The notes under the pieces were generated by a model. The model was not told the origin of the DNA and ran no database searches. It saw nothing but the letters and a program-made list of their open reading frames with translations. 36,749 bases of DNA from a virus. Of the stretch, positions 5,528-32,604 are shown one piece after another. Every line of letters starts with the position of its first letter. Position 1 is the stretch's first letter. The translations under genes were made by a program, and so were the position numbers. The stretch lies in the IMG/VR virus record IMGVR_UViG_3300009678_001574. One strand, given 5' to 3'.

Positions 5528-6200
5528 CCCAGAGTTCAGACAGCTTGCCGACCAGATTGAAAAGGAAGTCTCTGCCGCATCAGGTGGTATGGATGGTTGG
5601 ACTGACTTGGTTCGCAGAGCCGCTTTTAAGGGCTTGACCGCTGGATATAAACTTGGCTTATATGATAGTGATATTGAAGCTAGGGTTTCTGAAGTCGAGG
5701 CGGCAGAGCTAGAAGAATTGAAGTCTTGGGCTTCTAAAGCGCACGGTGGACAGCAATACGATAACAGACCGTATTCGGTTCACCTTGAAGCAGTTGAAAA
5801 AGTGGTTGCTAGATTTGGCCATCACTTCAAGGGCTCTGACTTGATTTTAATGCGTAGGTGTTCGTGGCTGCATGATGTTCTTGAAGATACTTCTGTATCG
5901 TTTGACCAGCTACGTTCTGTTGCTGGTGCTGTAGAAGCATCATTGGTCCAATTGGTTACTGATGAGCCTGGGGTTAATCGCAAGGAGCGTAAATCTAAGA
6001 CTTATCCCAAAATTAGAACATCACCGCTTGCTATAGCTTTAAAGTTAGCAGACCGCATTGCTAACGTAGAGAATGCTAGAGAGACGAAATATTCCTTAAT
6101 CAACATGTATAAGAAGGAGCATCCTGACTTCCGCAGAGAGCTGTATCAAACTGGTATGTTTGACGATATGTGGGAGCATCTAGATAGCCTGTTGAAATGA
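5520..6200 (+). CDS. HD-domain hydrolase, RelA/SpoT (small alarmone hydrolase/Mesh1)-like
   Basis: AHGGQ...PYSVH, LHDVLEDT and LKLADRIAN motifs. Start ATG 5520 overlaps the upstream gene. Confidence 0.85.
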   Translation: MTSPEFRQLADQIEKEVSAASGGMDGWTDLVRRAAFKGLTAGYKLGLYDSDIEARVSEVEAAELEELKSWASKAHGGQQYDNRPYSVHLEAVEKVVARFGHHFKGSDLILMRRCSWLHDVLEDTSVSFDQLRSVAGAVEASLVQLVTDEPGVNRKERKSKTYPKIRTSPLAIALKLADRIANVENARETKYSLINMYKKEHPDFRRELYQTGMFDDMWEHLDSLLK

Positions 6201-6739
6201 GTAACATCAGATTGGATAAGGTGATTGTCTTCGACCTGGAAGCAACCTGTTGGGCTACAGAGGAAGAACAACGCCTTACTCCTTCTGAAATCATTGAGAT
6301 TGGTGCTTGTCTTTTAGATGTTCGTACTGGAGAAATCAGTAAGAAAACCAGGTATATTATTCGACCAAAGGTTCTAGAGATAAGCCAATATTGCACCGAC
6401 CTAACTGGACACACAGTAGATTCGGTAAAGAAGGGCATACCTTTTTCAGATGCCTGTAATAAGTTCAAGAAAGAATTTGGCACCACTAATAAGATAAGTG
6501 CAGCTTATGGGAATGACATAAGTAGTCTGGATAAAGAATGTCAGCGCTACGGCATAGTTAACCCTCTTAGTTCCTCCTATATAAACATAAGTCATTTGTT
6601 TGCTCTAAAATATAAGAACTCCAAGATGTCTCTTGAGCAAGCCTTGAAGAAGATTGACGAGCAGTTTGAAGGAACTCCGCATCATGGTGATGATGATGCA
6701 TTGAATGCTGCTAAACTATTAAGGAAAATACTGTCATGA
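6197..6739 (+). CDS. DEDDh 3'-5' exonuclease (ERI1/KapD-like)
   Basis: FDLEATCW, EIIEIGA, CTDLTG and HHGDDDA motifs. Confidence 0.9.
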   Translation: MSNIRLDKVIVFDLEATCWATEEEQRLTPSEIIEIGACLLDVRTGEISKKTRYIIRPKVLEISQYCTDLTGHTVDSVKKGIPFSDACNKFKKEFGTTNKISAAYGNDISSLDKECQRYGIVNPLSSSYINISHLFALKYKNSKMSLEQALKKIDEQFEGTPHHGDDDALNAAKLLRKILS

Positions 6740-7435: not shown

Positions 7436-7656
7436 AATACATTCTACTACTTGCCTTATGCTCCTGTGTACATACCAAAGTATACAGAGTAGATAGGCAT
7501 GAAAAGATTATCGAAGTAAGCGACTATACCACTAAAAATATGCACCGAATAGCCTTTCTCACAAAGAGAAAGGCCGAACTATTGGGTTGCAAGAAGATTG
7601 AATTTTTGGAATTGGACGCTCAACACGCACGAGCATTGTGCACAGAGCAGGAATAG
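7432..7656 (+). CDS. small lipoprotein
   Basis: MKYILLLALCSC lipobox-like N-terminus. Confidence 0.7.
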   Translation: MKYILLLALCSCVHTKVYRVDRHEKIIEVSDYTTKNMHRIAFLTKRKAELLGCKKIEFLELDAQHARALCTEQE

Positions 7657-7669
7657 TTGTATGAGAAAT

Positions 7670-7966
7670 ATGTCTCTTAAAACAAAGTACTCTATAGGGC
7701 AAGAGGTATATTACATAAAGGAAGCTCTAAGAAAGATTCTTGTTTGCGCTAGTTGCAATACAACTCGCAGTGAATATCATAAAGTAGTGGCGAAGGCTAA
7801 AATTAAAGATATTAGTTTTACTGGCAGCATCAGAGGCAAGGCGCAGAAAACTACGTATAGCTATTTGATATCTAATAGTATGGGATATAATATGGCTGAG
7901 AATGACTTGTACGCGACGAAAGAAGAGGCAGAGGCTAAGCGTGGGCACAAGAAAGGAATCTACTAA
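7670..7966 (+). CDS. hypothetical protein with a CxxC motif
   Basis: KYSIGQEVYYI N-terminus typical of small beta-barrel phage proteins; CASC. Start could be 7661. Confidence 0.7.
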   Translation: MSLKTKYSIGQEVYYIKEALRKILVCASCNTTRSEYHKVVAKAKIKDISFTGSIRGKAQKTTYSYLISNSMGYNMAENDLYATKEEAEAKRGHKKGIY

Positions 7967-8513
7967 CATAGATAGTGCTACTGCTTTTAGGGGCGAGACC
8001 AGAAGAGAGCGTTATATACGCAAGCTCCAAACAGCTAGTATGATGCCTATCTCCGTAGCTACAATTAACTTTAGTAAGGAAGCTAATATAGCCTATGTGG
8101 TTAGGGCCGCTGTGTGCTTTGGTGCCTTCGAGGTTTGTTTAATCGGCAATACTCCTAATCGAGATATTATGAATGACCTCTCTGGCAGCACATATGATTA
8201 CATTAAGTTTAACAGGTTTGCCAATGTGTCCGACTTCGTAGATTACAATAAACAAAACGACATCGGCCTTATAACCTTTGAACTTCCTAGTGAGCAGTTT
8301 CCCTCTCAGCCCCTTGACCAATACAAGTTTGATTTCACCAAGAGACATTGCATAGTTGTGGGCCACGAAACTATTGGTGTGCCTGTCGAGATTATGCTTA
8401 ACTCTGAGCGAGTATATGTACCCATGCCTGGTGCTGGCTTTTGTTTGAACACAGCACAAGCTGCTAACATAGCTATGTATGAGGCTGCTAGACAATATGG
8501 AGCAAGACGATGA
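7941..8513 (+). CDS. SpoU/TrmH-family RNA 2'-O-methyltransferase
   Basis: NIAYVVRAAVCFG, VVGHETIGV and VPMPGAGFCLNTAQA SPOUT motifs. Start uncertain; GTG 7941 chosen. Confidence 0.9.
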   Translation: MGTRKESTNIDSATAFRGETRRERYIRKLQTASMMPISVATINFSKEANIAYVVRAAVCFGAFEVCLIGNTPNRDIMNDLSGSTYDYIKFNRFANVSDFVDYNKQNDIGLITFELPSEQFPSQPLDQYKFDFTKRHCIVVGHETIGVPVEIMLNSERVYVPMPGAGFCLNTAQAANIAMYEAARQYGARR

Positions 8514-8977
8514 CTGAATATAGATTGTTCAAATGCACTGGCTGTCCTAATCAGGTACGGGAAGACCATAAGTTTTGTAGCCAGTGTGGCGCATCTGTAG
8601 TCGTTCCAGTTGAAAATCACGTTGTTAGCTCTGCCTACAGGAAGGTTTTAGGGACATGGCGAGTGTCTACTGAAGGCGACTGTGAGGGTAGGTCTACTCG
8701 CGACCTTGGTGTCCATACCGGATATGTAGATGAAATTGCCAGGTCGCTCGGCGCGTCAGCTATGTATTCTCTTCAGTTTAAGGCTCTGAATATTCCAGAG
8801 AAGCACACACCTGATAGTAAAGTTAAGAAGGTAAGTGTTAGTTTCGATATCGATTCTAAGACATGGGACTTGACACCCGAGCAAAGATTTAATGTAGCTC
8901 GGAGGCTGTTCAAGGATAGGCCAGTAAGAGTAAGCCAGGGACAATACTACGCTAGTTTTATCTTGGAGTTTGATTAA
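8510..8977 (+). CDS. hypothetical protein with an N-terminal zinc ribbon
   Basis: CTGC...KFCSQCGA. Confidence 0.8.
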   Translation: MTEYRLFKCTGCPNQVREDHKFCSQCGASVVVPVENHVVSSAYRKVLGTWRVSTEGDCEGRSTRDLGVHTGYVDEIARSLGASAMYSLQFKALNIPEKHTPDSKVKKVSVSFDIDSKTWDLTPEQRFNVARRLFKDRPVRVSQGQYYASFILEFD

Positions 8978-24044: not shown

Positions 24045-24542
24045 ATGGATATACATCCTTATTGTGTTTATGCTGCAAAAAGGCTAGATGAAGATAGAAA
24101 TATAGTAAAAATTGGATACACATCTAATATTTATAGCAGACTTCTTCAAATTAGAAGCAACGTAAATGCCCCTATATTACTTATAAATGTAAGGCCGTTT
24201 TCATATAAAAGTTGTGCTATTAAATTTGAATCTATTTGCAAATATGCTTTAAGGGACTTTAGATCTGGTGAGTATTCATCTGAGTGGTTTCATACCTGCC
24301 TCTATGGAAGTAGTAAAGAAGAGAGCAATATTATCCCTAGAATGATAAATGGGCTTAAAAAGAAATTTATGTTTAGAGAGCATATCACAAATGAAGAAAT
24401 GAAACATCATCTACTTGATATGTTCTTTTTTACATGCTCCTTATTTGGTGTAGCGGGTTCTAAATCCTATGCCGAAAAACTATTAACTAGCAATAAAAAG
24501 CTTTCAGAGTTCATTAATTTTAATTTAGTGTTAGACCAATGA
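24045..24542 (+). CDS. GIY-YIG/T5orf172-like nuclease-domain protein
   Basis: CVYAA...VKIGYTSNIYSRL...E...SEWF; AT-rich gene. Confidence 0.75.
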   Translation: MDIHPYCVYAAKRLDEDRNIVKIGYTSNIYSRLLQIRSNVNAPILLINVRPFSYKSCAIKFESICKYALRDFRSGEYSSEWFHTCLYGSSKEESNIIPRMINGLKKKFMFREHITNEEMKHHLLDMFFFTCSLFGVAGSKSYAEKLLTSNKKLSEFINFNLVLDQ

Positions 24543-26524: not shown

Positions 26525-27154
26525 ATGTTTAAGCTAACTCACGCACTACCTGATAAATATTATGTAGCATGTTCTGGTGGCGTAGATAGTATGGCTGTTT
26601 TGCATTGGTCATCTGTTAAGCCCGACAGAGTTATTGCTGCTGTATATATTCATCACGGTACTGGTGAGTTTGCCGACAAAAGCGAACAAGTCGTAAGGGA
26701 ATATTGCGTAAAAAACAATATTCCCCTTTTAACTTATCGCGTAGAAGGCTCATGCCCAGAAGGTAGGTCTAAGGAAGATTGGTGGAGAGAACAAAGATAT
26801 GCTCTTTTCCAAAAAGTTCCTGGTACCGAACCTATTGTACTTGCTCATCATCTTGACGATTGTATTGAAGAGTATCTGATGTGCTCTTTGGTAAGAGGGT
26901 ATGAGGGTACTATCGCATACAGCAATGGCAGATGCGAAAGACCGTTTAGAAAGTGGAGCAAGGGTGATATTATTGACTATGCTATTAGGCATAGTCTGAC
27001 TTGGATTGAAGACCCGAGTAATAATAATACAAACTTTAAGCGCAATTTCATTAGACACGAAATCGTTCCACGAGCCTTACAGCTAAATCCTGGCCTGGAT
27101 AAATTGGTAAAGCGGGCAATTGATAGGATTGATTTAAATGCTTTTGAAGTTTAG
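26525..27154 (+). CDS. tilS: tRNA(Ile)-lysidine synthetase, minimal form (PP-loop domain only)
   Basis: ACSGGVDSM, RY, AHHLDD, RP, WIEDPSN and RNFIRH motifs. Confidence 0.93.
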   Translation: MFKLTHALPDKYYVACSGGVDSMAVLHWSSVKPDRVIAAVYIHHGTGEFADKSEQVVREYCVKNNIPLLTYRVEGSCPEGRSKEDWWREQRYALFQKVPGTEPIVLAHHLDDCIEEYLMCSLVRGYEGTIAYSNGRCERPFRKWSKGDIIDYAIRHSLTWIEDPSNNNTNFKRNFIRHEIVPRALQLNPGLDKLVKRAIDRIDLNAFEV

Positions 27155-27227
27155 AATAAATCTGCACCTGCTATTGTGTACGATATGCAGACGAGAATAT
27201 TGTGAAGTTTTCAAGTGTAAGTTATAG
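27138..27227 (+). CDS. possible 29-aa peptide with an HxxxCxxC zinc motif
   Basis: MLLKFRINLHLLLCTICRREYCEVFKCKL*. Bridges the tilS end and RNase P helix P1. Confidence 0.4.
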   Translation: MLLKFRINLHLLLCTICRREYCEVFKCKL

Positions 27228-27349
27228 CACTGAAAGACAATCACTAGGGTGAACTCCTAGAGGAAAGTCGGGACTCCATAGAGCAGTTTAGTGGGTAACT
27301 CCCATCCCGTGCAAACGGCGGATTAGAGGAACAGAGACGAGCCTTTCTA

Positions 27350-27550
27350 ATGAACATTGGTGATAGAGTAAAAATTGTTGGCGATTTAGCAGCAATAGAT
27401 CATCGAAGTAATCGCTACGGTATTATTACAAAGATAGATGGAGCATATCATTATGTCCGTCCTATGTGGTGTAAGTGGACCGCAGAGTTTTATGAGTGGG
27501 AATTAGAAGGGGTGAAACGGCCAATCTCTAAACGGAGCAACATCAAATAG
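27350..27550 (+). CDS. 66-aa SH3/KOW-like protein encoded inside RNase P RNA (P12 insertion)
   Basis: MNIGDRVKIVG...GIITKIDG...YEWELE pattern. ATG sits at the tip of the P12 5' arm. Confidence 0.7.
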   Translation: MNIGDRVKIVGDLAAIDHRSNRYGIITKIDGAYHYVRPMWCKWTAEFYEWELEGVKRPISKRSNIK

Positions 27551-27556
27551 GTCAAT

Positions 27557-27724
27557 ATGAAAAAGAAGATTGATTTGAAACTCAAAATAGAGCAACAACC
27601 TGATGGTAGTTGTATCGTTCATTTCGACAAGGAAGCGTTGTTAAAAGCATCGTTATCCGATCTATTATATGATGTTCAACAGGCTTTGATTTCAGACTCC
27701 TGCTCGGAGAATATTGACGGGTAG
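27557..27724 (+). CDS. 55-aa protein encoded inside RNase P RNA (P16/P17 insertion)
   Basis: MKKKIDLKLKIEQQPDGSCIVHFDKEALLKASLSDLLYDVQQALISDSCSENIDG*. TAGGT SD-like motif upstream. Confidence 0.6.
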   Translation: MKKKIDLKLKIEQQPDGSCIVHFDKEALLKASLSDLLYDVQQALISDSCSENIDG

Positions 27725-27807
27725 ATGGCTTGAGTGTTAAGGTAACTTAACACCTAGAGGAATGATTGTCATAACAGAATCCCGCTTATTGATGTGCTAT
27801 TCAATAC

Positions 27808-27884
27808 GGGCCTATAGCTCAATTGGTTAGAGCGGGCCGCTCATAACGGCTAGGTTCTAGGTTCGAGTCCTAGTAGGCCCACCA
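27808..27884 (+). tRNA. tRNA-Ile2(CAT), lysidine-type
   Basis: GGGCCTA/TAGGCCC acceptor stem with C4:G69 and C5:G68 TilS determinants, loop CTCATAA, no initiator features, next to tilS. Confidence 0.9.
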
Positions 27885-27895
27885 TTCGAGGTAAT

Positions 27896-28144
27896 ATGAA
27901 TAGATTATATTTAGTTTTAATGTTGTTAGCTGGCTGTAGTGGTGATGGAAAGAAGACTAATTGCCGACACCACTGTCCAGAAAACAAAGACAAGCTAGCG
28001 GAATTTCAGATTGAATGTATTAAGGCTGGTAGGTCTGGTACTCATACGTTAGCTGGTGATGATCAGGACGTAGAAGATGTAGTTGATTCATGCAGAGTAT
28101 CAGCCATACATACTTTTTGTGAATGGAAATGTATTAGGGAATAA
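27896..28144 (+). CDS. small Cys-rich lipoprotein
   Basis: GAGGT RBS; LAGC lipobox. Confidence 0.8.
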   Translation: MNRLYLVLMLLAGCSGDGKKTNCRHHCPENKDKLAEFQIECIKAGRSGTHTLAGDDQDVEDVVDSCRVSAIHTFCEWKCIRE

Positions 28145-32007: not shown

Positions 32008-32604
32008 ATGGGTGATCATGTACTCGGAACCCTAGATATGAATCAATTTCTAGAGATGTTTAATGGTGGTCCTAAAAAGATAAAATTGTACGGACATAAG
32101 ATATATTTTTTTACAAATTATATATATAATCTGGTAGAAAATAATTTTAAATGTATCAGATGCAAGGCCAAAGGAGATCATTTTAGGATAATTAAAACTA
32201 ATCCTAAAGCTTTAGAGGCTAGTATATATCTTCATGGTAAGCACAGCGGCAGAAAAATTACGATAACCAATGACCATATTAAACCAAGGTCTATAGGCGG
32301 CCCGAACTGCATACATAATTATCAACCACTTTGCAGTGATTGTAATAATTATAAAGGTGATAAGTGGGATATATTCGACAGAGTTAAATATATAATTAAT
32401 TGTATTATTTATAGATTAGGCTTTGATAATTCCCCTGATAGATGTAATTGTACAAATCTTTTATCAGAAGCTCTAAAAGAAACGGTTCGTATATTTAGGT
32501 CTTATTTTTTGTTGGACTTGTTTGACGCTCGATACGATAAATTTACACATAGTAAAAAGGGACGCCACAATGAACAACAAAAGAATAGTGGCAAAGTGGC
32601 TTAA
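32008..32604 (+). CDS. HNH endonuclease
   Basis: CIRC...DHIKPRSIGG...NYQPLCSDCNNYKG. Confidence 0.9.
   Translation: MGDHVLGTLDMNQFLEMFNGGPKKIKLYGHKIYFFTNYIYNLVENNFKCIRCKAKGDHFRIIKTNPKALEASIYLHGKHSGRKITITNDHIKPRSIGGPNCIHNYQPLCSDCNNYKGDKWDIFDRVKYIINCIIYRLGFDNSPDRCNCTNLLSEALKETVRIFRSYFLLDLFDARYDKFTHSKKGRHNEQQKNSGKVA

Follow-up and report, generated by a model that had tools for sequence, protein, structure and literature searches.

The window examined here, a stretch of 36,749 nucleotides (nt) from IMG/VR record IMGVR_UViG_3300009678_001574, is part of a 468,446-bp metagenomic contig (ENA ERZ27267619 k141_116371) of an uncultured huge phage. On its plus strand, genes for a lysidine synthase (tilS), an RNase P RNA (rnpB) and a tRNA with the anticodon CAU lie in close succession. 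tilS (26525..27154) encodes a 209-amino-acid (aa) short form of the enzyme comprising the N-terminal catalytic domain only, as judged from PF01171, TIGR02432 and a structure model. A spacer (27155..27223) separates it from rnpB (27224..27804), which encodes an RNase P RNA of class A that lacks P13/P14 and contains two large insertions. The 3′ strand of helix P1 ends at 27800 and the 7-nt linker UCAAUAC (27801..27807) joins it to the first nucleotide of a tRNA-Ile2(CAU) with an encoded CCA (27808..27884); the Rfam model ends 3 nt before the tRNA. An earlier note on this DNA had named the TilS without its usual C-terminal domains, the RNase P RNA and the CAU tRNA 7 nt later, and these identities stand. 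The locus is read here, with a probability of about 0.6, as two fused translation-support modules carried by a huge phage, one for AUA decoding (TilS and tRNA-Ile2) and one for 5′ end processing (rnpB).

RNase P is counted among the housekeeping enzymes of cells. A full-text literature search of one library turned up no description of an RNase P RNA encoded by a phage, and Al-Shayeb 2020 and the P finder paper are both silent on the matter. The window sequence matches RF00010 (RNaseP_bact_a) at 27224-27804 over the full model (positions 1-367) with 164.1 bits, against a gathering score of 100 (E 2.5e-51). Its GC content of 0.41 is like that of the phage and unlike that of a GC-rich bacterium. 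In P4, AAAGUCGGGA pairs with UCCCGCUU and the bulged U is kept; the helix is invariant or compensated in six phage rnpBs and bears a compensated swap (G:C) relative to the bacterial consensus. J3/4 and J18/2 are conserved. The L15 loop (CGGGUAG) has an intact GGU motif for CCA binding, which fits the presence of an encoded CCA in all seven window tRNAs (7/7). Among phage rnpBs, P1, P3, P8, P9, P12 and P18 change in sequence with their pairing kept, and RNAalifold of six of them finds a compensatory change in 24 of the 58 predicted pairs. The catalytic core is almost identical across the phage relatives, which include L263 (169.6 bits), L006 (151 bits, with a TilS 65% identical to that of the window), L105 (145 bits) and L264-266 (125.5 bits). 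Judged from its sequence, the phage rnpB looks like a functional ribozyme. A conserved and covarying phage RNase P RNA would extend the translation machinery known to be carried by viruses.

Compared with bacterial class A RNase P RNA (RF00010; nearest are Burkholderiales and Usitatibacter), the phage RNA has P1-P5, P7-P12, P15-P18, the P4 core, the GGU of L15 and J18/2 in common. It differs in its GC content, in the loss of P13/P14 (the window and L105 both lack 43 positions of the model), in ORF-bearing insertions in P12 and P16/P17 (P9 in L006), and in having a tRNA directly 3′ of it with no cognate rnpA found nearby. The cmscan alignment places an insertion of ~145 nt in the P12 loop (27353..27497), which makes up most of a nested open reading frame (ORF), and a further 133-nt insertion lies between P16 and P17 (27562-27694). 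The free remodelling of its peripheral domains would make the phage RNA a natural experiment on the minimal requirements of the ribozyme.

The first nested frame, ORF1 (27350-27550, 66 aa), lies mostly in the P12 insertion, and no homologue of it was found. ORF2 (27557..27724, plus strand, 55 aa) spans P16, the 133-nt insertion and P17, and is conserved in relatives. It recurs at 54-55 aa in five further protein clusters, giving six variants without insertions or deletions, and is present in L263, L105 and L264. Against L105, its differences by codon position are 10/4/12, with a dN/dS of 0.31. The P12 ORFs of the window (66 aa), L105 (78 aa) and L264 (69 aa, lipoprotein-like) are unrelated to each other, and all three have their ATG at the same spot of the P12 5′ strand. 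L263 has no ORF in P12, and L006 carries instead a 125-nt insertion in P9 with a 48-aa ORF (2669-2815). The nested ORFs lie at 814-1050 and 1057-1224 in L105 and within 1222-1850 in L264. In the window, the stop codon of ORF1 is the UAG of L15 and a possible ribosome-binding site of ORF2 is the AGG of the same loop.

These nested frames bear on the best surviving alternative, namely that rnpB is no longer a working ribozyme and is either a gene captured from the host and retained mainly to carry, or serve as mRNA for, the small ORFs within P12 and P16/P17, or a gene in decay. The missing P13/P14, the two large insertions, the purifying selection on ORF2, the occupation of one P12 site by different ORFs in the window, L105 and L264, and the poor scores of P1-P3 in L105 all fit such a gene. 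However, a near-identical core has been kept across otherwise divergent relatives, together with the compensated G:C swap in P4 and intact L15 GGU and J18/2 elements, and the six helices listed above covary. The insertions are confined to peripheral loops, and L263 keeps the ribozyme despite having no P12 ORF. Loss of ribozyme function is therefore considered unlikely.

The ancestry of the ribozyme was approached with a FastTree of 119 rnpBs, a biased sample in that it holds only rnpBs with the same P4 variant. The window, L105 and L006 form one clade, which falls within a well-supported group of 12 Betaproteobacteria and one Gammaproteobacterium. This is only a hint that the rnpB originated in Betaproteobacteria and that the host belongs there. 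Betaproteobacteria are usually GC-rich. A degenerate P4 pattern is not specific to phages, as it matches over 120 contigs from metagenomes and over 120 from genomes, most of them of bacteria (Acidimicrobiia, Betaproteobacteria, Clostridium).

Phage-borne rnpB may exist in a second lineage, the viral nature of which is weakly confirmed. Four IMG/VR contigs of 94-279 kb hold canonical-size class A rnpBs in arrays of 15-26 tRNAs, with a tmRNA in two of them (L131, 1111-1452; L132, 10235-10577, minus strand; L133, 1571-1912, minus strand; L134, 1630-1970). Like the window rnpB, these lie on contigs classed as viral and adjoin tRNAs, with the L132 tRNA starting 1 nt after rnpB. They differ from it in their length of 341-343 nt, their scores of 259-268 bits, the absence of insertions and of a TilS above cut-off, and in belonging to another lineage. 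No rnpA was found on these four contigs, including one rated 95% complete. A hallmark search in the IMG/VR rnpB contigs gave no match to Terminase_6N or Terminase_6C and only sub-threshold matches to TerL_ATPase and HK97 capsid (G004, G006).

The complete fusion of tilS, rnpB, a 7-nt linker and the tRNA is seen only in the window phage and in L263, which has the same gene order at 84-88% nucleotide identity and a linker of the same length (UCAAUGC). A second relative of ~85% identity, L010, keeps at least tilS-rnpB, its contig ending 23 nt into rnpB. In other relatives the parts occur separately. TilS and tRNA(CAU) are found without rnpB in L009, L142, L002, L007, L140, L141 and the jumbo phage PA5oct, and RF00010 has no match in PA5oct, LR756502 (a phage of 642 kb) or two TilS-bearing IMG/VR contigs. 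Conversely, rnpB stands without an adjoining tilS or tRNA(CAU) in L105 and L264-266. In L105 the upstream gene is the same as in the window and rnpB follows with no tilS between, and is succeeded by a 129-aa ORF and a tRNA-Arg. The order in L264-266 is tRNA-Arg(CCT), rnpB and an ORF. In L006, tilS, rnpB and the tRNA lie close together but are separated by other genes. These are two separate modules that have become fused in this lineage. As they occur apart in relatives, the suggestion of the earlier note that tilS, rnpB and the tRNA form one self-contained cassette cannot be upheld.

A stricter form of that idea holds that the rnpB-tRNA transcript cuts itself in cis and that the three genes are an obligate self-contained tRNA-Ile2 maturation cassette. 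The linker length shared with L263, the lack of a terminator-like element between rnpB and the tRNA, and the proximity of the three genes in L006 too are consistent with it. Nonetheless it is very unlikely, as L105 and L264-266 have rnpB without the adjoining partners, at least seven other phage loci have TilS and tRNA(CAU) without rnpB, and other genes intervene in L006. Only close relatives have rnpB and the tRNA next to each other. In engineered conjugates of RNase P RNA and tRNA, self-cleavage is reported to have required circular permutation, as the native ends are far from the active site, and a 7-nt tether from P1 seems too short. A phage ribozyme that adjoins a tRNA gene and can define an RNA end has a parallel in the Theta (hepatitis delta virus-like) ribozymes beside phage tRNAs (PMC10879173), although these are small and self-cleaving, whereas the window ribozyme is a trans-acting RNase P RNA.

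The second module begins with the short TilS. The 209-aa ORF matches PF01171 with an E-value of 1.3e-34 and passes the NCBI equivalog-domain cut-off of TIGR02432 lysidine_TilS_N (125.4 bits, cut-off 93.6). Against the full-length model NF007942 it reaches 93 bits, below the 606-bit cut-off. It aligns only with residues 16-205 of the 433-aa E. coli TilS (1NI5), and likewise with residues 28-222 in the case of A. aeolicus and 22-219 in that of G. kaustophilus. The phage protein thus stops at the boundary of the N-terminal domain, where C-terminal domain 1 (CTD1) would start, and is without both CTD1 and CTD2. An AlphaFold model built on 44 homologues has a predicted local distance difference test (pLDDT) score of 94.7, and its top Foldseek matches are the TilS structures 1NI5, 2E21, 1WY5 and 3A2K (TMq 0.79-0.84), ahead of TtuA. 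The family of short TilS proteins has at least 145 cluster representatives at E <1e-10, and all 120 homologues listed measure 196-268 aa. The SGGxDS PP-loop, which is SGGVDS at residues 17-22 of the phage protein, and 17 further residues are invariant across 44 family members, which argues for the members being active enzymes.

The bacterial type I and II enzymes (E. coli 1NI5, G. kaustophilus 3A2K, A. aeolicus 1WY5) share the PP-loop catalytic domain and conserved motifs with the phage family. In addition they always have CTD1, and type I has CTD2 too, by which the tRNA body and acceptor stem are read. The phage family has neither, and is a third TilS architecture. Phage-encoded TilS as such has already been published for the Pseudomonas jumbo phages MIJ3 and PA5oct (Imam et al. 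2019, PMC6892783), which likewise have an N-terminal-only protein of ~200 aa, that of PA5oct being 38% identical to the window TilS. PA5oct is an AT-rich jumbo phage of a GC-rich host, as is presumed of the window phage, and likewise has a tRNA(CAU) with G3:C70. It differs in that this tRNA is 9.3 kb from tilS and annotated as tRNA-Met, and in having no RNase P RNA. The study of MIJ3 and PA5oct made no connection between TilS and a tRNA of the phage, and speculated that the enzyme helps to keep the host alive (PMC6892783). Recent biochemistry indicates that TilS needs its distal domains to choose tRNA-Ile2 over tRNA-Met. The short phage family challenges that view and provides a minimal enzyme for studying substrate choice.

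Linkage to a tRNA points to the partner of the short TilS. Of the 12 short-TilS loci inspected, eight have a tRNA(CAU) on the strand of tilS and no more than 4 kb downstream of it, namely the window, L009 (18 nt), L142 (173 nt), L002, L006, L007, L140 and L141, and in seven of the eight no other tRNA comes before it. L263 also has tilS followed by tRNA(CAU). When these nine loci are taken with PA5oct, every TilS-linked phage tRNA(CAU) gene has G3:C70 or A3:U70 (10/10). Pair 4:69 varies among the same ten between C:G, A:U and U:A, which fits an enzyme that does not read that pair. Short TilS and tRNA-Ile2(CAU) are a recurrent pair in many huge phages without rnpB. It follows from this linkage that many phage genes annotated as 'tRNA-Met' are AUA readers.

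Codon usage is in keeping with such a module. In 55 window ORFs, 15.0 of every 1000 codons are ATA, which makes up 25.7% of those for Ile, compared with published values of 0.6 per 1000 in B. cenocepacia and 0.9 in P. aeruginosa, two species with some of the lowest TilS activities measured (PMC12514573). The phage therefore uses AUA about 25 times as often as bacteria such as Burkholderia. The earlier note had proposed that an AT-rich phage supplies its own AUA decoding in a GC-rich host. The decoding part agrees with the Ile2 tRNA, the invariant TilS catalytic residues and the ATA frequency, whereas the host is suggested only by the resemblance of rnpB and the tRNA to those of Betaproteobacteria.

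It has also to be considered that the short TilS is unselective and lysidinylates the elongator tRNA-Met(CAU) of the host as well, acting as a factor for the takeover of host translation. Removal of CTD2 relaxed acceptor-stem discrimination in B. cenocepacia TilS (PMC11947777), and the inconstancy of pair 4:69 among TilS-linked phage tRNAs is in line with this. Moreover, a type I TilS of the host would already find in the phage tRNA the elements that it requires, and the additional enzyme may therefore have some other purpose. However, short TilS is tightly and repeatedly linked to an Ile2-type tRNA, which suggests that this tRNA is the substrate, and a slow TilS in hosts with little AUA suffices to explain a phage copy. 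The chance that TilS is a takeover factor is therefore put as slim.

The identity of the window tRNA was assigned by the rules of PMC1635315 together with similarity. Rfam places the gene at 27808-27881 (71.7 bits), and ARAGORN, which gives the anticodon as CAT, has it end at 27884. It carries the pairs G1:C72, G3:C70, C4:G69, C5:G68, C11:G24, U12:A23 and G27.U43, among them the 4:69 and 5:68 pairs pointed out in the earlier note. In a classification of 1,070 bacterial CAT tRNAs (Silva et al. 2006), neither Met nor fMet tRNAs combine G3 or A3 with C70 or T70, Ile tRNAs often have C4:G69 and C5:G68, and A11:T24 with G12:C23 is a mark of fMet (PMC1635315). The window tRNA is not an initiator, as 1:72 is paired and A11:U24 with G12:C23 is absent. 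Its best E. coli matches are tRNA-Ile genes, the one inspected sitting in an rRNA operon. In a Burkholderiales metagenome-assembled genome, its sole strong match is a tRNA(CAU) of Ile2 type (76%, E 2e-9), which has the GGGCC acceptor start and G27.U43 in common with it. By these marks the tRNA is of the Ile2 type and not Met. That it is instead an ordinary elongator tRNA-Met, with the TilS-like protein acting on some other substrate, is suggested by the CAT anticodon and by the tRNA-Met label that ARAGORN and most GenBank phage records give to such genes, but is rejected as barely credible given G3:C70, the match of C4:G69, C5:G68 and G27.U43 to the Burkholderiales Ile2-type tRNA, the E. coli tRNA-Ile matches and the annotation of a matching tRNA as tRNA-Ile in one phage record (H25).

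The acceptor stem may say more about the host enzyme than about that of the phage. E. coli TilS requires pairs 4:69 and 5:68, and B. cenocepacia TilS requires G3:C70 and C4:G69 (PMC11947777); the window tRNA has the pairs that both enzymes require. The acceptor stem is read by CTD2 (PMC1635315, PMC11947777), which the phage TilS is without, and C4:G69/C5:G68 thus fit recognition by a host TilS better than by the phage TilS. The earlier view of these pairs as TilS determinants is correct for E. coli but was wrongly extended to the phage enzyme. The tRNA-Ile of phage T4, which has CAU as its gene anticodon, is likewise phage-encoded and has C4:G69, C5:G68 and a non-Watson-Crick 27:43 pair. In contrast to the window, the annotation of the T4 tRNA region inspected contains neither tilS nor rnpB. 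T4 is not known to encode either and relies on host enzymes.

Under the two-module reading, the phage TilS most likely converts C34 of tRNA-Ile2(CAU) to lysidine, by which the tRNA would be charged with Ile and read AUA. The class A RNase P RNA, of putative betaproteobacterial descent, would pair with host RnpA and most likely cut the 5′ leaders of the CCA-encoding tRNAs of the phage. As the earlier note observed, no rnpA is visible: PF00825 has no match in the 41 window ORFs of 85-230 aa, the window being 8% of the contig. RNase P RNA and protein subunits are exchangeable between distant bacteria, which makes use of host RnpA by the phage rnpB plausible. tilS, rnpB, the tRNA and the next gene are probably one densely packed co-transcribed unit and would share a single transcript. 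RNase P, of phage or host and acting in trans, would be expected to cut this at 27807/27808, and the single cut would both free the tRNA 5′ end and make the ribozyme 3′ end. With nothing terminator-like in the rnpB-tRNA interval, cleavage at the tRNA 5′ end is the obvious maker of that 3′ end. To this extent the processing route put forward in the earlier note is retained, without its possible action in cis.

Several points weigh against this reading. Every TilS enzyme characterised to date possesses CTD1 as a minimum, and deletion of CTD2 alone cut activity sharply (PMC11947777), so a TilS of the N-terminal domain only may be weak or unselective. The loss of P13/P14 and the 145-nt and 133-nt insertions, which are apparently protein-coding, could impair folding of rnpB. 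The betaproteobacterial grouping rests on a FastTree limited to one P4 variant. Finally, with the window being such a small part of the genome, an rnpA or further CAU tRNAs may lie elsewhere in it.

A more far-reaching proposal is that some huge phages run their own RNase P, with a ribozyme that is active with host RnpA, is freed from a tRNA-punctuated transcript through its own type of cleavage and doubles as an mRNA for swappable loop ORFs, and that with the minimal TilS this makes AUA decoding largely independent of the host. The mRNA part draws on the loop ORFs in P12, P16/P17 and, in a relative, P9, which have their start codon, possible ribosome-binding site and stops within ribozyme helices and loops. 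As a whole this proposal is tentative and falls well short of an even chance.

Of the tilS-rnpB spacer the last ~40 nt are conserved in L010, with a 31-nt core (window 27195-27225; last ~31 nt of L010). Neither a second occurrence of this core nor a promoter motif shared with the region upstream of rnpB was found elsewhere in the window. The conserved stretch upstream of rnpB may be a promoter or a processing signal. One weak sigma-70-like site in the spacer ends at 27157. Downstream of the tRNA lies an 82-aa ORF (27896..28144, plus strand) with a lipoprotein-like N-terminus, whose GAGG ribosome-binding site is within the tRNA trailer, and the same gene is 3′ of the tRNA in L263.

The long ORFs of the window are all on the plus strand, GC is ~42%, and PHROG matches include tail-fibre and virion proteins. 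An identical TilS is found on four contigs, three of them 0.2-1 Mb, so the same DNA is present in several independent assemblies. An exact 27-mer from rnpB has no match in IMG/VR, and in a blastn search of the window against INPHARED the tRNA alone gives matches. The other six tRNAs of the window read AGA, UUG, CAA, UUA, CUA and AAY. The window looks like a wider tRNA-maturation region. The tRNA-Arg(TCT) is flanked by a DEDD/RNase T-family exonuclease and a SpoU-family 2′-O-methyltransferase (6197-6736 and 7902-8510), the methyltransferase being nearest to TrmH and TrmL with scores below the cut-offs. A T5orf172/MUG113-type (GIY-YIG-like) domain protein and an HNH endonuclease are encoded near tRNA genes (24045-24542 and 32008-32604), and HNH genes adjoin tilS or tRNA(CAU) in relatives too (P0006 contig, L140). 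A short A/T run followed by CGA lies 3′ of the window tRNAs and likewise 3′ of tRNA(CAU) in L263 (3711-3715), L140 (~7549-7556) and L141 (~8519-8525).

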